Below the pieces are notes generated by a model. It made no database searches. It saw only the letters and a list, made by a program, of their open reading frames with translations, and was not told the DNA's origin. Of a DNA stretch of 20,000 nt, positions 1 through 18,883 are shown one piece after another. The DNA is taken from contig MEDY01000137.1 in the NCBI GenBank assembly GCA_001724265.1, positions 46,283 to 66,282 of the forward strand, written 5' to 3'. The position numbers and the translations under genes were made by a program. Every line of letters begins with the position of its first letter. The stretch's first letter is position 1. Source of the DNA: Rhizaria sp. SCN 62-66 (lineage: Eukaryota).

Positions 1-1846
1 CGGCGCGCGGGGCGGCCTCGAGCTGGGCAGCGGCGCCCGCGGCGAGCTCAGCCTCCTCTGCAGTCAGTGGAGTCGCAGTTTGAGAGTCAGCGGCGGAGCT
101 CTGTGACGCGAGAGTGGACGCAAGCGGGGGCGCGATGGGAGCGACAGCAGAAGCAGCAGCAGCAGCAGACACAGTCTCGTCGTTTCTGGCGGTCTTGATC
201 TTGCTCTTGATGGGGACGAGCGGGAACGAGTCGATGATGAAGTGGCTGTCAGGCGTGTTGGTGAACATGCACGTAACGCTCTTGACGTGATTCGCAGGGC
301 ATCCCGCCACCGCGCCGTACGTGCCGTGCTTGTCCGCCTTGTCCGCAGCCTTGGCCGCCGCGATGGACTCGGCCTCGGCGTCCTCGGCGCTGACGTTGCC
401 GCTGGCCAAAGTCATCGCTGCAAGCTTCTCTAGAGCACTGAACGCACTGTTGTCGACGGCGTTCACAGCGCCCGTGGAGATCGTTGTCTTACTGTCGGCA
501 CCGCTGCTCTTGTTGTTAGTCTCGGCAGAGTTGGTGTCGCAAGTTAAGCCGGGGAAGAGCGTGTTAATGAGCACGGTCTGCGTGTCGATGTCGGCCTTGC
601 TGACGCTGCGCTGCACTTCGAGCGGGTCCGCGACGGCCTCGAGCAGGTGGTTGTAGCGCGCGAGCTTGAATGCGTTGTCGGGGCCGAAGACGGGGAAGCC
701 GTAGTAGTACCCTCCTTGGCCACCGTCCGTGACGCCGGGCGGCGCGGGCGCGATGCTGGGGTCCAAGTGGGCGATGAAGATGGGGAAGCGAGTGTGGTCG
801 TACTTGTCCAAGTACTCAGGGCGCGGCTTATACCATGTGACCACCTGGCGCTCCACCACGAGAGACTCGATCGCAGTCCTGAGGGCACGGGGCAGCGTCA
901 CAGCAGTCGGGACAGGAGCAACGCCGGACTTTTCAGTCGTCTCGGCCTCAGCCTCAGTCTTAGCAGTCTCAGGGGTAGGCTCAGTCTTAGGCGCCTCAGA
1001 CTTGTCCTCACACTTGTTTTCATTTGCGGGCGTGAGATTTGCAGTCGTGAACTGAAGCGCAGTCTTGGCGGTGGCTGCGAAAGTCGCGTTGGCAAACACG
1101 CTGGCCTTGGTCATGGCCTGTGTCGTCCAGGGCCCCGCCGAAAAGACCACCTTCTTCGCGCGAAATGTGCCCTGGGTAGTGGACACGGCCACCTCCTCGC
1201 CGCCGGCCGCAAGCGTGACGTCGGTCACCTCGCAGCCGAGACGCGCGCGCGCGCCATGGGTCTGCGCAAGAACGTAGTGCGCCTCGATGCAGCGCTCGGG
1301 CGCGAGGATGCCCGCGTCGCGCTGGTACACCGCAACGTAGCCTTCGGGCAGCGTGAGACCAGGAAACCGCTCAGCAGTCTCGGCCGCAGAGAGGACCTCG
1401 TGGGGCAAGGAATGCTCGGTGCAGGCGCGGATCGCGCCGACCACGCCGGCGTCGTCACGCTGGCCGATGTCAAGCCCACCCGTGTAGTGCAGCAGCTTGG
1501 CCTTGGTCTCCGCCTCGAGCTCGTGCCACAGCGCGTAGGACTCCTGCAGCAGAGGCACGTACGCAGGGTGCTCCCAGTACGCCTTGCGGATGATGCGGGA
1601 CTCGCCGTGGGACGACCCGCGCGCGTGCGCAACGTGCGGAAAACGCTCAATGCCGAGCACCTTAAGCCCGCGGCGCGCGCAGTGGTACAGCGCAGCTGAG
1701 CCCATGGCGCCGAGGCCGATGATGATGACGTCGTGGAGAGTGTTTTGGTCGGCAGTGGAGTCCACGGGGAGCGGGCTGGGCCTGGAGCCAGGCTCATCGC
1801 GCATGGGGGTCAGGTAGTCGCGAGCGGTCGGCACAGGGACGGACAT
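1..1846 (-). CDS. FAD-dependent monomeric sarcosine oxidase / N-methyltryptophan oxidase (SolA/PIPOX family), 3' end outside window
   Basis: Own translation from ATG at 1846 is open to the window edge: MSVPVPTARDYL...DVIIIGLGAMGSAALYHCARRGLKVLGIERF (Rossmann GxGxxG, 1700-1717), GSSHGESRIIRKAYWEHPAYVPLL, VVFSAGPW, YYGFP, CMFTNTPDSHFIID (Cys at 269-271 matches the covalent-FAD cysteine motif of MSOX). Probably missed by the ORF track because no stop lies in the window. Confidence 0.92.
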   Translation of the reverse strand, partial: MSVPVPTARDYLTPMRDEPGSRPSPLPVDSTADQNTLHDVIIIGLGAMGSAALYHCARRGLKVLGIERFPHVAHARGSSHGESRIIRKAYWEHPAYVPLLQESYALWHELEAETKAKLLHYTGGLDIGQRDDAGVVGAIRACTEHSLPHEVLSAAETAERFPGLTLPEGYVAVYQRDAGILAPERCIEAHYVLAQTHGARARLGCEVTDVTLAAGGEEVAVSTTQGTFRAKKVVFSAGPWTTQAMTKASVFANATFAATAKTALQFTTANLTPANENKCEDKSEAPKTEPTPETAKTEAEAETTEKSGVAPVPTAVTLPRALRTAIESLVVERQVVTWYKPRPEYLDKYDHTRFPIFIAHLDPSIAPAPPGVTDGGQGGYYYGFPVFGPDNAFKLARYNHLLEAVADPLEVQRSVSKADIDTQTVLINTLFPGLTCDTNSAETNNKSSGADSKTTISTGAVNAVDNSAFSALEKLAAMTLASGNVSAEDAEAESIAAAKAADKADKHGTYGAVAGCPANHVKSVTCMFTNTPDSHFIIDSFPLVPIKSKIKTARNDETVSAAAAASAVAPIAPPLASTLASQSSAADSQTATPLTAEEAELAAGAAAQLEAAPRA

Positions 1847-2060
1847 GGGTCGCGGAGGGGACTGCAGGTGTGATTTTAGTTGATGTGACATTGGATGGCA
1901 GCGATGAGGAAAGGGAGCACGTGCGAAAAGAACGCAAGATGCGAGTGAGATGAAACCAAGATTTAGGCACTCAACGTGAATATCTCGTTGCGTATTAATT
2001 CAGTATAGTATTGAAAATTGCATATGGCTTTTGGATTCGGTTGAAAATTTCAATTTAAGG

Positions 2061-5000
2061 ATGCGTAACAACATGTTTAAACCCAAGATAGAACGCACTT
2101 CGGACCTCGTTTTGCGTTTGTGGTGGACCAGCGATTTTGGCGACTGTGGTCTGCTTTCACTCACGCGGACCCGACATCTTGCACGCGTAGGTGAACAGCC
2201 ACAACATCGACAGATCTCTGTGATTTCAACTTATACAACAGAAAGCTCACTATTCTATACGGATAAATTGTTTTTATCTCTTTAGTCCCTACTTTTCTCT
2301 TGCTGCACTCATTCCCGCCGAAGCTTGATCTCACTGATAAAGAGACCCATCCCAAAGCTTTCCCCGCGCGTCCCCTCCGCGACCACTCAGCGCAGCTCAT
2401 GCAAGGGCTGCCGCGCACATTTGAGGCAGGATGCGCGCCCATTATGCGTCTGGACTCGGACCAGCTCCACGTGAGCTACATTTCAGACGAACTGTACGGC
2501 CATGTGATGCTTGGACTTGCCGGCCTCACGCCTGGTGATGCCGTCAACCTCAAGCTCATCGCTCCTTCCAACGCCGCGTCCGCCTCCGGTGCGACGGGGA
2601 GCTTCGCGACAGCAGCACCGGGGACAGCTGTGGCTGGGGCGGCAGCGCCGGTGCTCGCTGGCGGCAGCCCGTTCGGCTCGTTTCTCGGTCTCACTTCAGG
2701 TTCATCCACATTATCAGCCAGTGGGATCTCAGCAGGTACTGCCTCGTCGTCCTCGTCGTCGCTCGTCTCGCAGCAGTGGCCGCCCGTTCCGTCCTACAGC
2801 GATACCGTGACTGACGGCACGCTCGACTACCACTACCAGCGTATCCTCCAGAACTCCGCGCTGCCCGAAGCCGACGCCCTCGCGCAGCTCGACAACTTCG
2901 CCACAGTGCCGCTCGACGTGCTCCAGGCGTCGCAAAACCGCAATGCGCTGCAGGAGCGGCTGCAGGCCATGGGCGCGCTTGCGATGTTTAACCTGAAGGA
3001 GTCTGAGAGCGGCCACTTCCCCCCGGGGTTCAAGTTCGACTGGACGATCACTCTGACGTACCACGGCCGCGAGCTCTCTGCCACGGGCTACGCCAAGGAC
3101 AACAAGAAGAACGCGAAGCAGGCCGCCGCGTACATTATGCGGCGCAAGATCGCGTACATCGACGACGTGCGGTTTAACCATGACAGCTCCCGCGAGCTCT
3201 ACACGTGCACTAAGGCCCCCTCTGTCATGGTGTCAAAGGCGGCCGCTGTGTCCGCCGCTGTTGCTGCGGGCGCGCCCTCTTTAACCGCGATCATGGGCGG
3301 CCCCAGTGCGTTTCCGCTGGGCGCCGGGCTAAGTACCCCCTTACACTTCAACCTCGGCGGCAGCGCAGGATTGATCCCGAATCCTTTTCCTCTCACAGTC
3401 ACTGGCATGACTGGCATCACTGGCATTACTGGCCAGACGGGCGCTGGCGGCGATGGTGTCGCTGTCTTCCCTTCATCAACTGCCGCTGGCGCTGGCGCTG
3501 GCATTGGCGCTGGTTTCAGTGCCGGCCTTGGCGCCACTGCTGCTATGACAGACTTAAACGCCACACCTCCCAGTGCCGTTAACAGCAGCGGCAGCGGCAG
3601 TAGCAGCAGCAGCGGTTCCCTCCCGCTCTCGTCCTCGGGGTCAGGTGTTCCGGTACGTGTGGCCACGCGTGTGGGCGAGAAAGTGCGCGCCGCTGTCGCC
3701 GCCGCGGCCGCCGATGCGACTGGCCCGTGGCTGGGCTCCGCTGCCGCTCACGGCCACTTGGCGGCGCTTGACGCAGTTGCCAATGATGAGAGTCGTGGCG
3801 GTCGCCAAGACCCAATCAGCAATCCCAACAACACGGTGACGCGTGTCTCTGGACTGAACTCTGCGTCTGTGATGAGTGATATCGACAACAACGAGTCCAC
3901 AAGCACCGACAGCACCGACACGAGCTCTATGCACCTAGGCAGCGGTGACGGCGAATGTTCTGCTGTTGGAACTCGCGGAACACATTGTACACGTGGGGCT
4001 GCGGTGAGTGACGAGTTCCAACAGAACGGCTATTGGCACACCTTCAACACCGTGCCAGTACCAGTGCCAGTGCCCTCATGGGTCAGTTTCGCTGCCTGCC
4101 CTCTACAACTACACCAACACATGACGGCAACCAACAGCAGCAGCAGCAGCAGCGATCACAGGAGCAGTGCAAGGGCTGTCGACGGGAGCACGCTTGCTGC
4201 TGATGCCGCTGCCGTGGCCGCGATCGCCCGCTCAAGCCTCAACTCTGCCGCGGTCTCCAATAGCTACAGCCCTGGCACCTCCCACGGCGCGGCCAGCGGC
4301 TCCGGCCCCCATAGTAGCAATGCCGGGGCATCCTCGGCGTCCGCAAGCCCCAGCAGCAGCGGCAGCAGCAGCGGCGGCGCATCATACGGCGGCCACCTAG
4401 CCTTGCGGGAGGCATTGGCCGAGGTTCTGACCGAAGCTTACCAGCCCTACAACAGTACAGCCAGCGCCAGCTCTGGTAGGGCAATGATGAGCGGCGCGGA
4501 CGCTGCCGTCGCCGCGGCCTCCATAGTCTCAGCGGCTGACTTAGTGGCTGTGCAGGGCGGGTACTTACCCGCGCTAAGGGCAGTGCTGCACGCGCTTGTC
4601 ACCATGGACAACACGACGACGCGTAAGTGTACCCGCGGCAAGAAGTCTAAGGGCCACTCGTCGAGCCCGAGTCAAGAAGCCACTGACAACTGCAAGACCG
4701 AGTCAAACAGCGCCAACAACAGCAGCAGCACAAGCAGTAGCAGTTCCATGTGTTCCGGTGGTACCGGTGACACCGCCGAGGAACGCGAGGAACCTGTGAC
4801 CGTGCTTGTCCAAGAGCCCTGCAAGCCTGAGACTCTGCAGCTGCTCGCCTCGCTCCGCATCACACCTATCCCAATCCCTCTCTTGCTCCCCAGCCTCAAC
4901 AGCAACAACAACATCAGCTCTAGCTCTAGCGCGAGTGCGACTTTTGGCAATAATGATATCGCTCTGCTCACGGCCACCTTGGGCTCGGCCACGTTGCCAC

Positions 5001-6772
5001 CTCCGGATTTCGCACAGCTCCCCGAGCTCCTCGCGCTGCATCGCCCACGTGCCGTGCTGCTTAGCTCCGGCGGCGGCCCCCACGGCCACGGTGGCGCTGC
5101 GCTCGCCCCCGAGAAGCTCTGGTCCGTTCTGTCGGCCGCAGTCTCGGCCGGATGCTGGGTCGTGGTGGACGAGAGCGGGGATTTGCAGACGGCGGCGGGC
5201 GCGACCGAGATGGGGGTCTCGCTGAACCCGCAGCCAATCGCGTCGGATAACGCCAGTAGCAGTGCCAGCGCCAGTGCCCGTGTCAGCGCTAGTGCCTGTG
5301 TGGACGCGAATGATGTGGGGACTGTTGTTGATGAGTCGGGTGTGTTTGTGCATCTAAGTACCCCCGGCTCGAGCCTTCTAAGTACCCGTCTAAGGGCCAT
5401 GATCGTCGCACGTGTCGCCGAGAAGTCTCTCGTCACGCAGTACCAGGACGCGGCTCTTACAGCGGCTCTAAGTACCCTCTCCAGTCTAAGTAGCAGCTCC
5501 CCCACCAATGCAACCCTCGACCCTGCGACAGCAGCTGCCGTTGCCAACGCCAAGGCTTACGTGGCGCAGCTACTGCTGCCTGCACTTCCTTTGGCAGCCA
5601 TCGCAACGCGTGCTATTAATACTCAGCAGGGCGGCGGCAGTCACGCGTCACCCCAGGTGTCATCCCAGGTGTTACCCCATGTGTATCGGCGCCGCGGCTG
5701 GCCCGTGCTCCCGCTCGGCTGCTGTGTCAGCATCGGCTCCGTGCCCGCCCTGGCTTCTCTGTCGCCGCTCTCCTGGATCGAAGCCCATCCGGCCGTCGCC
5801 GCGCATATCTCCGCCGCGCTCGCCGCAGCTGCGACGCTGCCGGCCGCCCCGTTCTTCACTGACTCAACTCGCGCAGCAGCAGCGGACTCTGGTGCGTTTG
5901 TGTCGCAGTCCCAGTCGCTGTCACTGGCGATGTCGTTATCTCAGTGCGGCGGCGGCGGGTTGGCTGCGGCCGCGCTACTGCAGGCGCTGCGCATGCGGAT
6001 GCGGCGAATGACGATGCGGGAGGCTGCTGCCGCCGGCATCACATCACTCGCCTCCGCGACGACTGCGACCGCTGTGGCCGCAACGGCGGCGGCGAATGCT
6101 GCTGGTGGCGTCGCGCCTGGCGATGCGAACTCTACGTTGTTTCCGAGCAGTATCGCGAGCGTCGGCTACGCGGCAGCGACGACGGCGACCGTCGACGGTC
6201 CCTGGCGCTATTACACTGTGTACAACGTGACCGTGGGGACCCGGGCAGCCGCTTTGGTTCACTCGGCTTGGGCGCATAAGCTGCTGAGCGACACTGTGCG
6301 CGCGGTAGTCAACGTACTGAACCGCGCTAAGGGGGTACTTACGGTGTCCGCGGGGCTAACGACTGTGTTCGCATCACAGCAGCAGCAACAAACTAGGAAC
6401 AGCACGCCGGTGCTGAAGGATGCCCTATCAGTGCCCGACGGCAATATCTGGATTACAATCGTGCCGCAATCTCCGCTCGGCGCACCCCAGAGCTACAATA
6501 ACAACAACAATAACAACAACAATGACAGCAATAATATCAATAGCTTCAGCAGTGGCACTAAGCGGAAGAAGCCCGAGACCGGCGCCGAGCTGTTGGCCGC
6601 GCTCGGCGGCAGCGTCCGCGCGGTCCTGGGCACAGCCTGTGTCGTCGGTCCGCAGTCCCCTCTGGCCGAGCTGGCGCGTCGTTCGCTTTTATTGCGCTTG
6701 GCAGGGGCGGACTATGACAGTGCAATCCGGGCTGCGAGGGCGATTGTCGCCGAGATGATGACCGCGGTATGA
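2061..6772 (+). CDS. Large protein with a dsRNA-binding motif (DSRM) and a degenerate PLP-dependent aminotransferase-like domain
   Basis: 1490-codon ORF 2300-6772. DSRM-like segment ~2936-3150 (NALQERLQ...FDWTITLTYHGRELSATGYAKDNKKNAKQAAAYIM). Aminotransferase-like blocks ~4385-6760 (GHLALREALA, VLVQEP, RPRAVLL, WVVVDES, SIGS, GNIWI, LLRLA). Start uncertain: a putative exon 2061-2190 joins in frame via a phase-1 intron 2191-2285; otherwise the first ATG is 2399. Confidence 0.75.
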
Positions 6773-6895: not shown

Positions 6896-7778
6896 CGAGT
6901 GTACCAGATTTCGCACTATATATCGCATATAGCACTGTTTAAAATAAGTTGACCATATATCACGCAATACAATATTTTGTAAATCAAATTTTAGTTGTTG
7001 AATCGCATGTCTGCCCACTCATATTGTGTGTTTCCTGTTTTCTTCTCAGTGACCGTGAGCTAAGGGCCCTTAGAGGTGCAGACTGCGAGGGCGAGAGATG
7101 AAGGGTGGAGTGCGCCAGAATGAATTTCAACAGACCTACCAAATAGGCTCACACTTTACACCAATTCCAATGTCCTCCATTGCGAAGAAGACCAAGGTAC
7201 TTTCAAATCTATTTTGAAATCCCGCTCCCTGGATTGTAAATGTGCGCAAAATCGTGGAAAAGACTCACGGCTTGGTATGGTGTGCAACTGCGCGTTGGGT
7301 ATCACGACGGAAACCCAATCCTTTGCCGCTCTGCACGCTATCTTTGGCGCTGACCAACTTCATCACTCGTCTTGTGACCCTCTCTCATGTACCCTCAAAA
7401 GCTTTTCTTATGGACTAGCTTTGAGGAAGTGCGCGAAATGCCGGTCCAAAGTGCAGGTTGATGACGTTGGCGTTGCCTGAGCGTGTGGAACGTCATAAGG
7501 ATTGGTGAGCGAGCTTATTGCTCTCTCTTACGTCATGATACCGCCCGCGCTGTCGCTCGCCGGACCCTTTCTCGTCTCAGTCGAATTGTTGTCATTCTCT
7601 TTGCGATTGTTTTGCCGCGGCAAGACACTCACCTCAGAGTCGGCTCCGTTCTACACGTGGATGAGAAATTCCGCAGCTTCTAACTTGTTTTCCCTCCATT
7701 CTCTTCCCGACTTTTCTCTCTCTCTCTTCCTCGCCTTTCTCTCTGTGGTATCGTGCTTTGCTTGTGTCTCAATTTCAG

Positions 7779-8150
7779 CTTGCTAAGCTCGCTGCTCAGA
7801 AGGAGCAGGCCGTGTCGTACACGATCAAGTGCGGCGATGTCGTCTCTGCCGAGATTTTCGATGTCCCTGCCTTCGAGACCTACCTGACCTCCCACCTTAA
7901 GGCCAAGAAGGGTGGCCGCGCCGGCGACCTCGGCAAGTTGGTTGCCGTCTCGGCCACCGAGGAGGACGTCACCGTCTCGGCCGTCAGCGCCATGTCCAAG
8001 CGCTACGTCAAGTACCTCACCAAGAAGTTCCTCAAGAAGAACCTCCTCCGTGATCACTGCCGCGTTGTCGCGACGGGCAAGGCCTCGTACGCCATTAAGC
8101 CCTATAAGTCCGCTGCGTCCACCGAGGCCGCCACTGAGGAGTCCGCGTGA
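7779..8150 (+). CDS. RPL22: 60S ribosomal protein eL22 (main exon; first exon unresolved)
   Basis: YTIKC...IFDVPAFETYL...GRAGDLG...MSKRYVKYLTKKFLKKNLLRDHCRVVATGKASYAIKPY is the L22e signature. Strong C/G-ending codon bias. Pyrimidine tract plus CAG acceptor at 7778 (phase 0). Confidence 0.93.
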   Translation, partial: LAKLAAQKEQAVSYTIKCGDVVSAEIFDVPAFETYLTSHLKAKKGGRAGDLGKLVAVSATEEDVTVSAVSAMSKRYVKYLTKKFLKKNLLRDHCRVVATGKASYAIKPYKSAASTEAATEESA

Positions 8151-8339
8151 ATTGAATCAAATCGCGCAGGCTCAATGGCTTGACTTAAGTAAAGAACAAG
8201 TTTTTAGAACAGGCGTTCGCCGCAACATGCGTTCTTGAGGGCCACATAAGCTCTCTGAATACACAAACTCATCTTTAAAACCACAAAACAATCCCGTTTC
8301 AATGGTAGTATCGTATGTATTGCTTTGTCCCTATTATGA

Positions 8340-9323
8340 TTACCCCTTGGTGTGACATACAACGCTGCCATTACTCTTAACCACCAGAAACACGACCTGA
8401 ACGCTACCCTGCTGCATACCGTCATCCAGACTCTGTCCCTGCTGCTGCTGCTGCGCCGCCGCCGTCACGCCGGCACTATTGCGCCTGTAGATGGTGAGTT
8501 GGCCGGCGATTTCCCCCGAGTAGCCGCTGTCCAGCTGGCGCAGCTCGAGCGCGACGTCGGATGTGTGGGCGACCCTGGCGGCCAGCGCGCCGGCCGCGAC
8601 GGGGGGCAGCTCGCTGGTGAGGCAGCCGACGGGGTCCGTCACGGCCGCGGTGGCCGCTGCGAGCGACCAGGCCGCCGCGGGCACCGACGCGGCGGCCGCT
8701 GCGGCGACTGGACCTGCGGCCGGGGCGGCCGGTGACTGCGCGACGACCAGAGAGCAGCCTCCGGTGGCGGCGGCGGCGGCGGTCGCGGCGCAGGCCCAGT
8801 CGAGCGCGAGGTTATCATCACTATTGCAGAGAAGAGCGCTGACGTCGGCCAGCGAGTCGATGATAACGCACACACGCTGGGGTGAGACGGTGGCACTAGT
8901 TACTGCTGCCGAGGGGTGGCTGTCAGTCTACTTGATCATGCTCTTCGCTGCTGACGTGATGTGTTTAAGCAGGAACGCAAGCGCGCGCGCGCCGGCGGAG
9001 GAGTCGGGCCCCGCTGCGTCGGCAACCGCAGCCGCAGCAGCGACGTCGACGACCGTGAGCTGCTGCGACGTGACCGCAGTATCGAGCGACGCCGCCCCCA
9101 TCTTCCGCAGGATATGCGTGTAATGGTAGATCGGGTGTGATGCGCAATAAAACACGACGCGCGCGGACTGCGCAAGGCAGTGCGCAAGGAACGTGGCCGT
9201 GACGGCGTCGCCGGGGGTTGCCGTGGCGTCGTGGAGCGAGTAGACGGCGCCCGAGGCCCAGGCGGGTGCGGCTGCCGACCAGCCAAGCACGTCCGCAAGC
9301 GGATACTGCTGTGCAGAGGACAT
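8340..9323 (-). CDS. ELP6: Elongator complex subunit 6-like (RecA-like fold), with one in-frame TAG at 8928-8930
   Basis: ORFs 8928-9323 and 8340-8873 share a frame and are separated only by TAG plus 18 sense codons. N-half: VYSLHD...FLAHCL...HPIYHYTHILRKMG...LTVVD. C-half: VIIDSL, AHTSDVALELRQLDSGYSGEIAGQLTI. Both match ELP6 motifs. Ends in TAA. Confidence 0.8.
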
Positions 9324-9724
9324 GGATCAACTGCTTTAGAGCAATAAGCTGTGGTAAGCGTACTTTAAAGACTATTCTCTCGATGAGCGTTCGATTTGTT
9401 CCACCTAGAGCTTGTTTTTGGGCTGTCAAAAAGCAAAGGTGATTGGTGGAGCGTTCGTGGTGAAACGAATCAAGGGGGAAGGTCAGCAATCTTTGTAGGA
9501 GTATTAGTGGTCGTTAGAGGCAGTCAAGTGTATATTTAATTTACAGGGAAAGAACAAAGCAATATTGTCAGTATTTCCTGTTTAGCTGATATTCCGTTGA
9601 CGGTCTCTGTTGCGTCATCTATACTATGTCAACACAAGCTTCAATGGAATCCGATCCGACTTTGTCTCAACCTCTTGCTCTTCTTTCTTGCCCATTGTCT
9701 TCCTACCTTTGCAATGATAGACCA

Positions 9725-10569
9725 ATGTCTGTGAAGCACTGTTCTAGCTCGAGTGATCTTAGCAGCATCTGCTCCAATGCCGGCGGCAAGGTCGTTGTCG
9801 TCGATTTCCACGCCACTTGGTGCGGCCCCGTACGTCCATGCATCACTCGCTCCTTCTTCCCTTCCATCTAACCACGCAGTTTATCATCATCGTATTGAGT
9901 GTAGCTAAGGTGAAACTTCACATGTACGGTTTTATTTGTATTACCTAACTAATGTCACTTATTTTGTTCTACTTCACTCTGTTTCTGTTGTGCTATACCC
10001 AGTGCAAGGCGATCGCCCCGACCTTCGACTCCCTGGCTAGTGAGTACTCTTCCACCTGCGTCTTCGTCAAAGTCGACGTCGACGTGGCCAAGGACGTCGC
10101 CCAGGCTTACAGGGTCACTTCTATGCCCACCTTCGTATTTCTCCACAAGGCCCGTGAGGTCGAGCGCTTTTCCGGCGGCGACCCCAGCGGCTTAACTTCA
10201 ACCGTCGCCCGCCTGTCCCGCGAGCTCGGTCGCGGCTCTGCTTTCACGGGCGCGGGCGCCGGAGTAGCCGGCGGCGCTACTGCCGGCGCGGGCGATGCGC
10301 CCGTCAACCCTTGGGCGCGCAAGGACTTTAAGCCGCCCGGGATGGCGCAACTGCAAGCGAACTCGACTGGCAACCCCGCTCCCACCGCCGCCGCTCCCGC
10401 CGCCGCTGCTGCTGCTGCTCCTAAGAGTGGTGGCAGTGCGGAATTTGATGTGGTGTGCGACGGGGACGTGTGCCGCCGTGTTCCCCGCAACAACAACAAC
10501 GCTGCGGTAAGTAATAACAATCAGGATGACCAGAGCCAAGGATGGGGCAGCTGGTGCACTGTGATGTAA
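9725..10569 (+). CDS. Thioredoxin (WCGPC) with C-terminal extension ending in a CaaX box, ~223 aa
   Basis: Exons 9725-9829 and 10003-10569. Intron 9830-10002 (GTACGT...CAG) splits WCGP|CKAIAP. Also VVVDFHATW, FVKVDVD, SMPTFVF. Terminus is WCTVM-TAA. Confidence 0.92.
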
Positions 10570-11037
10570 ATCTGTTCGTATATGCGCATTCATTACGACG
10601 CTATACTACGTATCATGCAGCTATTGTCAGATATTTCTATATATACTCAAAGAAAACGTCCAAAAGAAACAAACAACTCATATTAAGTGAAATTTTAAAC
10701 GAGACATGTCAGTCTGTGCATGTGCCCAAGTGTGTGGGGGGTGTTGTGTTTGTGTGAGTGCGTGTGCGTGCGATTGTGTGAGCGCGATTGCTACCGTGAC
10801 TGTGAACTGTGATTTTGTTTGTTTGTTCTGAGTGACGATTGTTGTGACTGCAAAGAGACTCACAAACACGCACACGTCCACGGCACTTACCGCTTGCATG
10901 CACACTTCGCAAAACAAGAAAGTAACGGCTCGCAACAAAACACAATATTCACAAGCACATATCTCACAAGCAATTGCAAACACACAGGCATACACATAAA
11001 CACACAAATACCTCACTTCACCAAGCATAGCAAGCAG

Positions 11038-11850
11038 ATGGTCATGATACTCAGTCTCACTGAAATCCGCAACTCACCGTTCTTGCGGAACGTGTGTAAT
11101 TCTCTGTTTCTTCTTCTCTACGCACACAGCCCGCTGCAACCGCATCCCACCCTGCCCTCCGCGCCACCACCCTTCAAGGCCCGCCTCCTCCCTACTCGCC
11201 TGCGAACGCAGCCACCGCCGCCACCGCCACTGCCGCTGCTGCCCGGTCTCACTCCCCCTCGGCCGCCACCACCACCCACGCCCCCACCGCGCACGCTGCT
11301 GCTCCTGCCTCGCCCGCTGCGACCAGCGGTGCGGTGCCTGCGAGCCCCTCTGCGGGCGCCACGATGCTGCTTCGCGCCCTCGAGCTGCGTCGTTCGCAAT
11401 ACCAGTCTGCCGTCACGCCCGAGCAAGAGCGCGCGAGCATCATCCACCACCGCGCGCGCGCCGAGGCCGAGCTCGAGGCAGAGGCCGCCGTGCGCGCCAA
11501 GGCCGCCGCCGTGGCCGCCAAAGAGGACGCTGCGCGCGCGAAGCAGCGGCGCGAGGACGAGCAGCATGCCGCGGTTCTCAAAAAGCGGGTCGAGGCCGAT
11601 AAGCTGCGCAGGATCGAGGAAGCGCGGTACGTCATATGAAATGATACATATATTTGTAATTCTGTCATGTACGTTAGCGTTTTATCTTATTATTTGTGTT
11701 GATGTTTGGCTTCAAACTCACTTGTATCTTGATTTAATGTCGATGCAATCGTTGTTTTTCGCTGCATACAGCGAGCGCGAGCGTGCTCTGGCGGCCATTA
11801 AGGCGGCCAAGGCCGCGGGTGGCGGCACGACGCCGCCGCTCCAGAAGTGA
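11038..11850 (+). CDS. Hypothetical ~190-aa protein: Ala/Pro-rich N-terminus with PPPY motif, charged helical/coiled-coil C-terminus
   Basis: Exons 11038-11040 (ATG only, tentative), 11130-11626 and 11772-11850. Intron 11627-11771 (GTACGT...CAG, AT-rich) joins RRIEEAR|ERERALAAIKAAK in frame. GC-rich exon versus AT-rich intron contrast. Confidence 0.7.
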   Translation: MVMILSLTEIRNSPFLRNVCNSLFLLLYAHSPLQPHPTLPSAPPPFKARLLPTRLRTQPPPPPPLPLLPGLTPPRPPPPPTPPPRTLLLLPRPLRPAVRCLRAPLRAPRCCFAPSSCVVRNTSLPSRPSKSARASSTTARAPRPSSRQRPPCAPRPPPWPPKRTLRARSSGARTSSMPRFSKSGSRPISCAGSRKRGTSYEMIHIFVILSCTLAFYLIICVDVWLQTHLYLDLMSMQSLFFAAYSERERALAAIKAAKAAGGGTTPPLQK

Positions 11851-12771: not shown

Positions 12772-13875
12772 TTACACCTTATTGGTCTCGCTCTTGCCGC
12801 TATTGTTGTTATTGTTAGTATTAGTGTTGTTGTCGTTCACAACACTGTCGTGGCTGCTGCGGCCGGCGCCGTTGGCCCCACCGCGGAGGAACGACCTCCG
12901 CGCGCCGCCCTGAAACACCTCGGTGGCCTTTTGGACCTCATTGACGCTGCTGCTGGGCGTAACGCGGTCGCCAACCCACTCGCCGCTGCCGAGCTGATGG
13001 TCATGGTCGTCGTGGCCGCCACCGCCGCCGCCACCGCCGCCGCCACCGCCGCCGCGACGGCCACCGCGACCACCACCGCGACCGCCACCGCGACCGCCAT
13101 CGCGACCGCTGCCGCTGCCGCTGCCGCTGCCGGCACTGTTCCCGATGTTGCCGCTTTTGCCACTGTTGCGGGCGCCAGAGCCAGAGCCAGAGCCAGAGCT
13201 AGGGGCAGCGGGGGTAGAGAGAGTTGTAGTCCGCTTCTGGGACCTGGTGTCGAGGACGACTTGCCAATCAGAGCCGTCGCCCTCAAACTTACCCTTGCCG
13301 CTGCCGCTGCCGCTGCCGCTGCCGCTGCCGCTGCTGCTACTGGTGATGTTGCTGTCGTTGCCGCTGCCTCGGCCACGGCCGGCCTTGCTGCCGCCGTCCC
13401 GGCTCCCGTGACTATCCTTGCCGTCCCTGTCCTTGGAGTCCTTGCCGCCCTTGTTGAGGTCCTTACTGTGGTCCTTGTCCCTGCTCTCCTTGCCATCCCT
13501 GCCACTGCCGCTGTGACTGGAGTCCTTCGCGTGCGCGCTGATATTCACGCTGGTGTGGCTTGACGTCACATAGCGCGGCTTCCCGTCGTCCTTACTGTCA
13601 CGGCGGTCACGGCCGTCCTTGTTGGCCGCACCACCCTTCTGTGACTGTTGAGACTGCGACTGGAAATGGGATCCGCCGTGGCCGCGAGCGCCGCCGTCTT
13701 TGTGAGAGCCATCATTCGCATCCTTACCAGTAATCGCGTTGTGACCACTAATGCTGTTGGTCTTATTCTGCTCACGCTCGCGCTCAGGGTTGCGCTCAAC
13801 AGACGGCTTGAAGCTGTTCTTGCTGCTGCTCGCGGCGGGGCCGTCGCGCCAAGAGCCGCCGCCGCCGTTGCCGCT

Positions 13876-13916
<41 letters not shown>

Positions 13917-13950
13917 TGGGCTTGTGGCCGTGCCCGCTCCCAAACGCAAA

Positions 13951-13982
<32 letters not shown>

Positions 13983-13987
13983 CGGAG

Positions 13988-14018
<31 letters not shown>

Positions 14019-14292
14019 CAGAGACAGAGACAGAGCCAGAGACAGAGACAGAGCCAGAGCCACCGGAGTGGGAGTGGGACTTGTTCGCGGCTGCGGAGGC
14101 GGCGGTGGCCTTGGCAGCGCGCGCGGCCTCACCTGCGGCCTTCTTGGCGGCCTTCTCGGCGGCCTCGCGCTCCGCCAGCACTTCCTCGCGGCTGCGGATG
14201 TCGCCGAACGGGTTAGACCTAGGCGGCCCGGGGATCACGATCCCCGCGTCGGCCGCGGCCGCAGCGGCTGCGGTGCTGGAAGACGAAGCGAA

Positions 14293-14334
<42 letters not shown>

Positions 14335-14988
14335 GCTGTTGAAGCCTGAAGAGCGGGCGGGACCGTATGACGCACCTGAGCCCGAGCCTGAGCCTGAGCC
14401 GTAGCCGGCGCCGGAGCCGCCGCCACTGCGGTAGCTGGAAGAGGAGGAGCTGTGTGCGTGGGACCCGAAGCCGAGGCGCGCGACTGGTACGGGGGCGGCG
14501 GCGGCCGCCACGGCGGCGGCTTGCATGGCGGGCATGGCAATGACGTCCTGCGCGGCCTTGGAGTCGTAGACGTTCACCGTGATTTCCTTGCCCTGAATAG
14601 CAGAGCAGAGAGCGAGAAATGGATATGCAGACAAAGATAGAATCATGTGAGAATAAAACTTGGGCATAAGTTTAAAAAAAAAATTACATATATATGACTT
14701 CAATCAATGTATAGAAACGGAGTGTGATATATGTACCTGAAAGAGGACCTTGCTCATGCGGAGCAGCCCCTGTAGCGCCTCAGCGCTCGAGACCTCGATG
14801 ATGGCCTGCGACCGGCTGGGACGGGCGTTGACCTTGATGGAGACGTAGGGCGTGCGGCCAAGCCAGGCGCGGACGCTGTTCTCGGTGACGCTGCTGGGCA
14901 GGCCCGCGACGATGGCTTCGTAGGGTGGACCGCTCGGGATCTTATTGTAGCCACCGCCGCCGCCGCTGCTGCTGCTGTAGCCACCTTT

Positions 14989-15024
<36 letters not shown>

Positions 15025-15451
15025 CTTGTTATAGCCGCCGCCGCCGCCGCCGCCGCCGCGGGCGTTGTCCTTGCCGCCGTAGGGCCGGCCGCCGTGTCCG
15101 TGGCCGCCGCCGCCGCCTTTTTGGCTACTGTTGCTGTTGCTGTCAGCCGCGGGCAAGTGCGCCTGAGGCAGGTTGAGCTGGCGCTGGGGCACGTGCGGAG
15201 TGTTGTTGTCGTCCTCGGGGATGAAGTCCGCCCAGCTGCCGCCCTGGATGAGCTCGGCAAGAGCTGTGCGCAAGACCGGCGCGGGCGGGGACGAGGAGGA
15301 GAGGCGTGGTTCGGTTTGTTGGTGAGAAAGGGCGAGTGGTGGGGAGGAAATGACGGGGAGTGAAAGGATGAGATATCAGCACGGATATGCAGTGGACAAA
15401 GACAAAGATAGTATATATGATGTGCTTAGAACTATGCGTACCTTGATCCAT
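12772..15451 (-). CDS. eIF4B/eIF4H-like RRM protein with Gly/Ser- and RGG-rich regions, ~785 aa
   Basis: Exons 15451-15442, 15263-14737 and 14592-12772 join in frame via GT-AG introns: MDQALAELIQGGSWADF...PPYEAIVAGLPSSVTE...AIIEV...LFQ|GKEITVNV (RRM)...PRSNPFGDIRSREEVLAERE. SWAD, PPY-RRM and NPFG are eIF4B-family hallmarks. Confidence 0.75.
13876..14062. repeat. Coding microsatellites (GCC)n and (GCCAGA)n encoding poly-Gly and (Gly-Ser)n
   Basis: (GCC)n at ~13876-13915 and (CCAGAG)n at ~13952-14062. Further GCC runs near 14294-14331 and 14988-15058. Confidence 0.9.
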
Positions 15452-15958: not shown

Positions 15959-18883
15959 TTAGAGGTCATCCCGCAGGTCCTGATCGGCCGGGAACATCTC
16001 CGCATCGCAGCTCATCCCTTCCTCCATCTCCTGCACATTCGTAAAGGGCGTGAACCGGTCCGCCGTCTCGAGCACCTCGGTCGGCATCCACCCGTTCTCC
16101 CACCACAGCACGGCCCGGTCCACGGCGCGCTCTTCCGGAACGGGGAAGCCCTTGCCGTCGGAGAAGACGGGCGCGTCCGTGGCCACAAGCACCACGGCGT
16201 CGGCACTCGCCTGCGCCCAGTAGACGTGGCGGAACACGCCCGCCCACGCCGCAGCGACCTGCGCGGGGGACTCGCAGTCCACTGCAGTGAAGGCTGGGAA
16301 GTCGTCGGAATCCTCAACGACTCCATGTTCCGCAGAAGCATACTGCGAATCCTCCGTCCGTCCGCTCGCGTCGGCGTTTGAACCACTGGTAGATTGAGAC
16401 TGGTTCTCGCTAGAGGTTAAACCACTCGCGCTTGCACGCGCGGCATCCCCTTTGGTGAGATCGCGCGAACCCGCGGTCGCCGCGGTCGCAGCGGCCGCAG
16501 CAGCCGCATTGTCGCCCCCATTGCTCGAGTCCCTCTGGTGGCTGTTCTTGCCCGCCTTGCAGTGCGCGGGCAGCAGCGGCACGCGGCGGATGATCGCGGC
16601 CCCGGGCGCAAGCGTGGCCTGCAGTCTCCGCAGCACGTGCGGCGCCGTCAGCGACGGGTCCGCCACGGTGTCCTGGATGATCAGGTGGTACTGCTTCACG
16701 GGCCGGTGGAGCGCGGGCGCTGCGAGCAGCAGGGGCGCAGCGGCGGCCGGGTCGACGATGATGCAGCCGCTCGCCGCGACGGCCTCCGCCTCGGCCTCCG
16801 CGGTCGCCGCAGTCGCCGCGGTCGCAGCTTCAGCGTCAGCCGCGTCGGCCGTTGTGGCGTCGGAAGACTTAGCAGTGGCACTGGAGTCGCTAGCTGCGTT
16901 CGCGGGAGCAGCAACAACCTCCGCGTCAACCACAGTTGAGCCACTCGCGCTCTTAGCAGCGCTGGACGCTGCCTCCAAGCCGCCGCCGTTGTTCTCCGAC
17001 AAGGCCTCCTTGCTACCGCTCAGCAGGGGGAGCTCCTTGGTCGCGGCCACGTGCGCCGCCACCGCCGCCTCGGCCTCCGCGGACGGAAACAACGCCGCCA
17101 CGAATGCCGACGGCGTGCAGAGTGCGGAGTACGCGCGGACGCCCCCGGCCAGCGGCGGCAGCGCCAGGGACGCGCCCGTGGGGGACGTGGCGTTGTGAGC
17201 GGCCGTGTCGCGGTCGACGGCAAGGCTGGCCGTCACACTGCCAGCACGGTCAGAGCCAGAGCCCACAGTGTCGGAGTCAGCGTCGGCGTCGGCGTCGGGA
17301 GCGGCCGCGCTCGCCGGTGCACTGCTGGGGCGAGCAGCGTTCAGAGCTGAGCTGACGGTAGTCGCTGCAGTAGCAACGGTAGTGGCGCTGGCGCTGTCAG
17401 GAGCCGCTTGCCGTTGTGACGTGGGTAGAGTGTCGAACCCGGCCCAGATAACTGCCTCGGCAGCCGCGGCGGCCTCGGCAGCGCCCGGGATCCCCTCCTC
17501 GGCCGCCTCGGCCGCCGCCGCCGCCTCCGCAGCCGCTGAGCACGCCGAGTACCCGTTCGAGTGCTCCAGATTCGCCACCGCAGCCGCGACGCGCGCGGCG
17601 GTCGCGCCTTCGAACGCGAGCTGCACGGGGTGATCCGGCGGGCCGTCCACGGTCACGTACGCGCGGGACAGCAGCTCGCGGGCGGCGTCGCGCGCCACCA
17701 GATCGCTGTCGACCGAGTCCGTGACTGCGTGGGGGAAGTAGCGGTCGAAGTGGGCCGGCAGCACAGCGGCGGCCGAGGCGCCGAGCAGGAGCACCGACGT
17801 CACGGGCGCGTGCGTGAAGATGCAGGCAGACAGCATCAAGCACTGCGACGGCGACAGCGGCGCAGCGGGGGTCGGGACGGGCGCAGCAGGCGCGTTGTGG
17901 GCCGCGACCGCAGTTGCGGCCGCGGCGGCGGCGGCCGCGGTGGTCGAGACGAGAGCCTGTGTGAAGACGAACGGCGTGGGGTAGGTGTCGTCGCCGCCGT
18001 CGTAGACGGCCTGAAACTCGAATACAACCTTCGTTTCTTCGGCGTCATCCTCTAACGCCTCCAAAACACTGTTCTTGACGCTAGATGTGTGGTTGTTGGC
18101 GGCGCTATTGGCAGTGTTGACAGAGGAGCGTGTGAGGGCCGCGATGCCCCCGGCAGCCGCGGCCTCCGTCGGCGTCATTGCAGAGCCACCCTTGCCGTGC
18201 TTGAGCTGCTGCTGCAGCTGCAGCGCGAACAGGGGCGCGGTGGCGTGGCGGACGACGCGTATGCGCAGCGTCGGGTTTGCGGCCGAGCGCTGGTCGAACA
18301 CGATGGTGCCATCGTGCAGCGCGATGTCTCCGGCCAGCTGAGCCGCGGCCAGTTCGCGCGCCATGTCGTCCAGGTTGCGCAGGCCGCCGGGCGCGGCGGC
18401 GCTATCACTCCCATCCTCATCGTCGAAGTCGTTGGTATCGAACGGCTTCGCGTCAGAGCTAGAGCCAGCGCCAGCGCCGGCGGCTGAGAGGGCGGCGGAT
18501 AAGGCGGCGGCGCGGGCGCTTGTCGTGCTTGCCTTGTTAGCGGCAATGGGGGACGCAAAGAGCGCGCGGGCAAGGTTAGCGGCGTCGCGGTCTGACAGTG
18601 AAGCTGCAGGAGCGAGTGTGCTGGTGCTAGGGCTAGGGGTGTTGTTGTTGTTGTTGCTGTTGTTTGAGGTTGTGAAGGCGGAGGCGGGGAGATGTACAAC
18701 CGAGCCAACAGGGAGCAAGCACGACTGGAACGCAAGCGAAGCGCCAAGAGAGGGCTTCTGAGCGAGAGTCGAGACGCTGCGAGTGGAAGCGTGCTTCGAC
18801 AGAGCAGCGGAGGCCGCGGCTGACGTGGTTGAGAGTGCAGCTGACACGACGCCGCGGGAGGCGACTGCGGCGGCGCGCTTCAT
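15959..18883 (-). CDS. Degenerate SAM-dependent methyltransferase / spermidine-synthase-like fold protein, possible mitochondrial presequence, ~974 aa
   Basis: Likely start MKRAAAVASRG at 18883 (Arg/Ser/Ala-rich, acid-free, RSVS motif). SVLLLGASAAAVLPAHFDRYFPHAVTDSVDSDLVARDAA resembles motif I/II. YHLIIQD, LQATLAPGA and VFRHVY...VVLVAT resemble later strands of this fold. Confidence 0.6.
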   Translation of the reverse strand: MKRAAAVASRGVVSAALSTTSAAASAALSKHASTRSVSTLAQKPSLGASLAFQSCLLPVGSVVHLPASAFTTSNNSNNNNNTPSPSTSTLAPAASLSDRDAANLARALFASPIAANKASTTSARAAALSAALSAAGAGAGSSSDAKPFDTNDFDDEDGSDSAAAPGGLRNLDDMARELAAAQLAGDIALHDGTIVFDQRSAANPTLRIRVVRHATAPLFALQLQQQLKHGKGGSAMTPTEAAAAGGIAALTRSSVNTANSAANNHTSSVKNSVLEALEDDAEETKVVFEFQAVYDGGDDTYPTPFVFTQALVSTTAAAAAAAATAVAAHNAPAAPVPTPAAPLSPSQCLMLSACIFTHAPVTSVLLLGASAAAVLPAHFDRYFPHAVTDSVDSDLVARDAARELLSRAYVTVDGPPDHPVQLAFEGATAARVAAAVANLEHSNGYSACSAAAEAAAAAEAAEEGIPGAAEAAAAAEAVIWAGFDTLPTSQRQAAPDSASATTVATAATTVSSALNAARPSSAPASAAAPDADADADSDTVGSGSDRAGSVTASLAVDRDTAAHNATSPTGASLALPPLAGGVRAYSALCTPSAFVAALFPSAEAEAAVAAHVAATKELPLLSGSKEALSENNGGGLEAASSAAKSASGSTVVDAEVVAAPANAASDSSATAKSSDATTADAADAEAATAATAATAEAEAEAVAASGCIIVDPAAAAPLLLAAPALHRPVKQYHLIIQDTVADPSLTAPHVLRRLQATLAPGAAIIRRVPLLPAHCKAGKNSHQRDSSNGGDNAAAAAAATAATAGSRDLTKGDAARASASGLTSSENQSQSTSGSNADASGRTEDSQYASAEHGVVEDSDDFPAFTAVDCESPAQVAAAWAGVFRHVYWAQASADAVVLVATDAPVFSDGKGFPVPEERAVDRAVLWWENGWMPTEVLETADRFTPFTNVQEMEEGMSCDAEMFPADQDLRDDL

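Follow-up and report, generated by a model that had tools for sequence, protein, structure and literature searches.

The window, a stretch of 20,000 nucleotides, carries on its minus strand a gene of the ELP6 family (positions 8340–9323) that starts with the ATG at 9323–9321, spans 327 codons and ends with the TAA at 8342–8340; it was recognised by its Pfam family (PF09807), by an ortholog and by a fold model. Translation of this frame encounters a TAG at codon 132 (8928–8930, minus strand), where the minus-strand letters read AGC ATG ATC AAG TAG ACT GAC AGC. This is the sole internal stop between the initiating ATG and the terminal TAA, and it is unchanged in three further contigs described below (X1, X4 and L001). 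Codons 1–131 (8931–9323, minus strand) represent the product that would be made if UAG terminates and are identical to a database protein, P0002. Codons 133–327 (8343–8927, minus strand) contain a conserved strand (RVCVIIDSL) together with the blocks SGYSxEIxGQLTI and CHTKG, which were located by alignment, Pfam and translation.

Several other genes surround ELP6, and the window organism appears as a compact, GC-rich-coding eukaryote (GC3 0.71–0.84) with AT-rich spacers and introns. A DAO protein gene (2–1891, minus strand), whose product resembles sarcosine oxidase and N-methyltryptophan oxidase and has long low-complexity insertions after the FAD domain, runs off the window. Two long genes at 2399–6772 (plus strand, 1,457 codons) and 15959–18883 (minus strand, 974 codons) encode Ala/Ser/Thr-rich proteins in which no Pfam family was detected at E 0.001. 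In the region 7480–8150 of the plus strand, an RPL22e exon (Pfam, 94.4 bits) starts at 7779 after a splice-like TTTCAG; neither a start codon nor a first exon was found for it. An RRM gene of the eIF4B/4H-like type (12772–15451, minus strand) consists of a 10-nt first exon (15451–15442), two introns and a coding region with very long Gly, Gly-Ser and Asn runs, and gave no Pfam match at E 0.001.

With X placed at the TAG, the 327-residue product scored 46.8 bits against the Pfam ELP6 family PF09807, for which the gathering cut-off is 31.6 bits, and the single aligned stretch, residues 38–191, bridges the TAG. When searched singly, the N- and C-terminal halves reached 15 and 25.2 bits, respectively, both below the cut-off. 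An exhaustive HMMER profile search of 1.84 billion representative proteins (E ≤ 0.001) returned 8 proteins. Among these were P0002, which corresponds to the N-terminal product and matches it at 100% identity over its 131 aa; P0003, a 351-aa relative without interruption, whose residues 1–351 align in the same frame with residues 1–327 of the window product at 49% identity (E 9e-55); and P0004, which has 254 aa and is 36% identical. A word-index protein search with the whole product gave no match, and the same type of search with residues 1–131 against candidates of 118–377 aa found P0002 only; neither revealed the ancestral codon in a nearer relative. An uninterrupted frame is present in the ortholog P0003 and in the DNA of a relative, L002, and is absent from the window ELP6. 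Judged by these alignments, the sequences on either side of the TAG are one gene in one frame, which bears out the claim of an earlier, sequence-only reading of this DNA that a single in-frame UAG lies within an otherwise intact ELP6. Downstream of the TAG there is a single in-frame ATG, encoding the Met in ...DDGMQQG... near the C-terminus; as the frame offers no usable ATG beyond the TAG, stand-alone expression of the C-terminal half is impossible and was ruled out.

To place the TAG within the protein, we used an AlphaFold2 model calculated from a 7-sequence alignment (mean pLDDT 67.2, pTM 0.72), which consists of one alpha/beta domain. Structural comparison matched this model with KaiC chains at Z 19.0 and, slightly lower, with chain 4a8j_C of an Elp456 entry at Z 17.2 (rmsd 3.4, 229 residues aligned, model residues 5–326), a chain that we take to be Elp6. 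The yeast Elp456 chain 8at6_F was also in the Foldseek match list, and a PDB sequence-profile search with the ELP6-family alignment gave 0 matches at E up to 1. The window ELP6 is thus predicted to be a single RecA/KaiC-like domain. It has the Pfam score and the RecA/KaiC-like fold in common with Elp6 of the Elp4/5/6 ring of Elongator (PF09807; PDB 4A8J, 8AT6), from which it differs in being very divergent and broken by a stop at codon 132. Because the TAG is situated inside this single domain, termination there would destroy the protein, and because the fragment 1–131 would lack most core strands, a working Elp6 would require that the TAG is bypassed.

Within the domain, the TAG belongs to a loop (codons 129–150; 8874–8939, minus strand) that connects helix 110–128 with strand 151–156, has low pLDDT values and varies in length among relatives. 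More precisely, pLDDT is below 50 for residues 132–147, and the TAG opens this segment, so that its earlier assignment to a linker fits the predicted disorder and the length variation of the loop. P0004 lacks the loop, P0003 has 13 more residues in it, and the relative's DNA L002 encodes the loop as a continuous open frame without a stop. If the TAG were bypassed, the loop residues past SMIK-X would read TDSHPSAAVTSATVSPQR. In the whole model, 93 of 327 residues have pLDDT values below 50, so that a random hit would land in such a segment only ~28% of the time.

The next question was whether the TAG is genuine DNA. The stretch 7500–10700 is present in bioreactor and wastewater metagenome runs of 7 studies from 2015–2025, and contigs of 4 runs were compared with the window stretch. 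A contig of run X1 (7992–10700) is identical to the window, and X1 is possibly the window's own source. A contig of X4, which stems from a different study (2025), covers 8811–9048 without a gap or a differing letter; the run has the character of DNA, as its contig 9047–10102 retains the intergenic region and the thioredoxin intron. In addition, a metagenome scan with a 3-sequence profile detected 2 loci, L001 and L002, of which the former is a separate JGI contig of 5,527 bases that is identical to the window in 984 of 984 bases of the gene. The truncated 131-aa product is recorded on 7 contigs from 4 source collections; no full-length near-identical protein was found among the 1.84 billion representatives, the next full-length match being the one with 49% identity. 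Between studies, the stretch 7500–10700 shows one T>C difference in 3.2 kb, although contigs drop minor variants and a minor allele or heterozygosity is invisible in such data. As far as the contigs show, sequencing error is excluded: with the same letters in assemblies from separate studies and years, we consider it next to impossible that the TAG is a sequencing or assembly error. The sequence-only reading had allowed for a CAG>TAG error or allele; the error falls away given the same letters in independent assemblies, and the nonsense allele has become the most likely reading. On the RNA side, poly(A) RNA contigs of X5 cover 8957–9316 and spare the adjacent intergenic DNA and the thioredoxin intron, so the ELP6 gene appears to be transcribed. 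The X5 contigs end at 8957, short of the TAG, and X6 provided no cover on ELP6; the absent RNA cover over the 3' half of the gene was given no evidential weight.

A very short in-frame spliceosomal intron that excises the TAG (8931–8896, 36 nt; 8955–8920; or 8955–8896) would leave the protein intact, and the sequence-only reading had offered the 36-nt span GTAGAC...AACTAG (8896–8931, minus strand) as such an intron. This span does restore the frame, is bordered by GT...AG and has a length that is a multiple of 3, and its removal would leave a loop similar to the short one of P0004. However, it is unlike all four introns in the window. These are the 173-nt intron of the thioredoxin gene (9830–10002, plus strand, GTACGT...CCCAG), for which an X6 RNA contig joins 9829 to 10003; a 145-nt intron of gene 6 (11627–11771, plus strand); and the 178-nt and 144-nt introns of the RRM gene (15441–15264 and 14736–14593, minus strand), the last three being placed by frame and homology-like continuity. 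All 4 are 144–178 nt long, start with GTAC, end with CAG and have a GC content of 0.32–0.53 and a T content of 0.28–0.44. The candidate, in contrast, has 36 nt, reads GTAG...TAG, has a GC content of 0.58 and a T content of 0.14, and is devoid of a pyrimidine tract; it lacks the GTAC/CAG borders, the length of 144–178 nt and the T-richness that make up the intron profile of the window, in which one of the four introns is RNA-verified. Moreover, 372 stop-removing GT/GC-AG pairs exist around the TAG, 7 of them of the GT type and shorter than 100 nt, and in-frame GT-AG pairs are so plentiful by chance that the mere existence of one is no evidence. Larger GT-AG introns around the TAG were rejected, as they would remove conserved blocks or conflict with the continuous RNA contig 8957–9135.

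Codon usage within the candidate span also bears on this point. Using a codon table trained on the other window genes, we obtained for the 11 codons past the TAG an in-frame score of +0.09 bits per codon versus -0.91 and -1.12 off frame, which is the pattern of the rest of ELP6. Calibration with 11-codon windows showed that 18.5% of true coding windows score lower and that 11.8% of stop-free noncoding windows score as high. GC3 is low in these codons (5/11; 7% of coding windows are equal or lower), which is one point in favour of a non-coding nature, and gene 6 may hold a 38-nt intron at 11092–11129, which would likewise speak for very short introns. On the other hand, the in-frame bias within the candidate and the continuous coding of the loop in L002 both argue against splicing. 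Taken with the splice-site, length and composition comparisons, they make the tiny intron a disfavoured explanation, and we hold any of the three short introns to be quite improbable. The start of gene 6 (11038–11363, plus strand) is relevant to whether the organism has very short introns at all. The sequence is coding-like from 11130 (+14.8 bits versus -63.6 and -34.1 in the other frames), there is no ATG before 11364, and position 11129 ends a pyrimidine tract with CACAG. Either the 38-nt intron joins the coding region to the ATG at 11038, or a ~375-nt intron from a GTGAGT near 10754 joins it to the ATG at 10706.

We then considered how UAG is used in the window. The 8 gene models comprise 4,639 codons, of which a single one, in one of the 8 genes, is an in-frame TAG, as expected from the earlier count of one in several thousand codons. 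The gene ends are visible in 7 genes, and the earlier statement that all of them are TAA or TGA holds under the new gene models, with 4 TAA, 3 TGA and no TAG; this is a small sample, and 0/7 would be expected ~13–20% of the time if TAG accounted for 20–25% of stops, a share that is assumed and not measured here. The thioredoxin gene of the L002 relative also ends in TAA. If it were a sense codon, UAG would account for 1 in 142 Gln codons or 1 in 322 Leu codons, and 0 tRNA genes are located in the 20-kb window.

UAG-only reassignments are known in protists (PMC5304391, PMC11687900). UAG-only lineages are described with 384 UAG in 71 genes and with 204 in 126 genes (PMC5304391); other UAG-sense protists have UAG in 78–91% of genes, where it provides 6.5–32% of the codons in its synonymous family (PMC11687900). 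In-frame UAG combined with terminators that are UAA or UGA only, as seen in the window, is also a feature of Rhizaria sp. exLh (UAG=Leu), Iotanema spirale (UAG=Gln) and phyllopharyngean ciliates (PMC5304391). However, these UAG-only lineages have 1.6–5.4 in-frame UAG per gene or UAG in 78–91% of genes, frequently where Leu or Gln is conserved (PMC5304391, PMC11687900), whereas the window has one TAG in 8 genes and at a non-conserved site. The hallmark of a UAG-sense code, namely numerous UAG codons in frame in the majority of genes and at conserved sites, is absent from the window. A UAG reassignment of the established type, which the sequence-only reading had put forward, is disfavoured by this usage. 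No pertinent publication on the genome or the genetic code of such a wastewater eukaryote was among the matches listed by a literature search.

What, then, is the TAG? The most likely reading, which we favour tentatively and give somewhat less than an even chance, is that it is a genuine premature termination codon created by a single-base nonsense change that arose recently in ELP6 and has reached, or almost reached, fixation in a population of very low diversity. Translation would in most cases end at residue 131, the product, devoid of the majority of the RecA-like core strands, would not provide an Elp6 subunit, and the organism would run with little or no Elp6 beyond that produced by basal near-cognate readthrough. 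Termination at the TAG, the youth of the change and the loss of function are all three points that we infer. The age of the change was addressed with a Tajima-type relative-rate count using P0004 as outgroup. Downstream of the TAG, this count gave 20 window-unique versus 20 P0003-unique changes, compared with 5 versus 8 upstream. The equal numbers downstream indicate that the post-TAG half was constrained like the intact ortholog for nearly all its history and, as there was no long-term relaxation, the stop, if disabling, must be recent. Given the very low diversity between studies, a recent mutation could be present in all samples.

Other observations agree with a nonsense allele. The TAG is invariant in X1, X4 and L001, and the truncated P0002 is found on 7 contigs. 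The way UAG is used in the window is that of a codon without a sense role, with a single occurrence, at a non-conserved position, in 8 genes totalling 4,639 codons. The lack of a full-length near-identical protein, of a known readthrough motif and of a usable ATG past the TAG would also be expected for such an allele, and a single lesion in an otherwise conserved gene is the typical look of a young pseudogene. Young unitary pseudogenes and single-lesion nonsense alleles have one stop, no frameshift and intact conserved blocks on both sides, as does the window ELP6. The window case departs from them in two respects, a lesion in a loop that tolerates change and no TAG among the 7 visible terminators, which leave room for a functional bypass. 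Indeed, three points speak against the nonsense allele: the absence of TAG from the terminators, which counts weakly; the placement of the TAG where the protein is predicted to tolerate it best, at the beginning of a disordered loop of variable length (~28% by chance); and the apparent transcription of ELP6. Furthermore, loss of Elp6 in yeast abolishes Elongator-dependent U34 modification, and how a null allele could become fixed in a free-living organism would therefore need explaining.

The main rival to the nonsense allele is that UAG is decoded at least partly as an amino acid throughout the organism, a reassignment still incipient or ambiguous that would be due to a suppressor tRNA or to a weaker response of eRF1 to UAG; we consider this unlikely while ranking it above the remaining alternatives. 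UAG would then be nearly gone from terminators and just emerging at tolerant sense positions. The terminators lend this weak support, seven being a small sample, and further points in its favour are the non-conserved loop position of the lone in-frame TAG, the otherwise intact and transcribed gene with a post-TAG rate equal to that of the ortholog, the in-frame bias retained by the 11 post-TAG codons, and the protist precedents for UAG-only reassignment (PMC5304391, PMC11687900). Yet one UAG in 8 genes and 4,639 codons is far below all known cases in these studies (1.6–5.4 per gene), no tRNA gene occurs in the 20 kb, and the loop of the L002 relative is without any stop. A bolder version, to which we assign a lower likelihood than to decoding in general, is that this deeply divergent wastewater organism is at the earliest stage of a UAG stop-to-sense change, with UAG purged from terminators and read fully or ambiguously by a suppressor tRNA, and with the ELP6 loop codon among the first sense UAGs. 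The codon-capture and ambiguous-intermediate models predict such an intermediate state, which to our knowledge has never been seen in a nuclear genome. Decoding could also be confined to ELP6, with a near-cognate tRNA reading UAG in a programmed manner and producing low, possibly regulated levels of full-length Elp6. The location of the TAG in a loop and the intact, in-frame and codon-biased downstream half would suit such readthrough. However, functional readthrough in cellular genes normally yields a C-terminal extension and does not bridge a domain, and the context AAG-UAG-ACU-GAC is not known to be a readthrough motif of the kind of UAG-CARYYA or UGA-CUAG. The predicted fold of 130 nt around and after the stop is not significant (z -1.02; 29 of 200 shuffles at least as stable), so that UAG ACU GAC is accompanied by neither a known stimulatory 3' context nor a significant downstream structure. 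The sequence-only reading had further speculated that readthrough of ELP6 might act as a feedback sensor of translation fidelity. A literature search for a link between Elp6 and readthrough gave general Elongator papers only, among the matches listed. We view gene-specific readthrough as rather improbable.

The organism could instead possess a second, intact ELP6 at another place, the TAG copy being a dead allele or paralogue, and such a second copy might escape notice since contigs drop minor variants. However, the exhaustive profile search revealed no full-length protein closer than 49%, though the truncated form is on 7 contigs, and the word search over 118–377 aa gave P0002 alone. We therefore regard a second copy as very improbable, and the intact ELP6 paralogue that the sequence-only reading had named as a counter-case was not encountered in these searches; as a whole, that reading is partly supported. 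Finally, restorative A-to-I editing of the mRNA could convert UAG to UIG, which would be translated like UGG (Trp), a process known from filamentous ascomycetes. In these fungi, the correction concerns 'pseudogenes' and takes place at particular life stages. A-to-I editing of premature UAG codons is described for fungi (PMC11156358, PMC10776026), and 71 such 'pseudogenes' are reported for Fusarium graminearum (PMC10776026). The fungal system favours U at -1 of the edited A and so often edits UAG (PMC11156358), the codon present here, and the Fusarium and Neurospora cases share with the window a lone premature UAG in an otherwise intact conserved gene. They differ in that the window TAG is known from DNA alone and that an ascomycete affiliation is without support: editing of this kind is known in some ascomycetes only, and nothing ties the organism to them. 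In addition, the predicted fold, which is not significant, puts the A in an internal loop and not in a hairpin loop. Editing is accordingly a highly improbable explanation for the TAG.

If the TAG is a simple nonsense allele, the gene would be an ordinary young pseudogene, showing only that a free-living microbial eukaryote tolerates the loss of Elp6. If it is decoded, the organism would have a rare UAG-only code variant outside the ciliates and the first with very low UAG usage, representing a transitional stage of codon reassignment. Settling the matter would be cheap either way, since public data sets from wastewater and bioreactors of 2015–2025 contain the organism repeatedly.

Regarding the host, the organism is uncultured and was encountered in wastewater, bioreactor and activated-sludge data only, in data sets from 2015–2025. 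RPL22e of the window is 43% identical to its best named match, which comes from a Monoraphidium MAG, and RPL22e profile scans of genome contigs and viral contigs gave no locus. A closer relative is represented by the RPL22e protein P0014, which is 77% identical and encoded on a 112-kb contig. A protein-atlas query with the adjacent DAO protein provided no taxonomic lead. The divergent thioredoxin-ELP6 pair of the window (8340–10569) is kept in the relative (L002, 155–1887), where ELP6 is 49% identical and the thioredoxin gene is without the 173-nt intron. The ELP6 protein P0003 and an RPL22e protein, P0015 (59% identical), are both encoded on a 2,933-base JGI contig, probably the same one.
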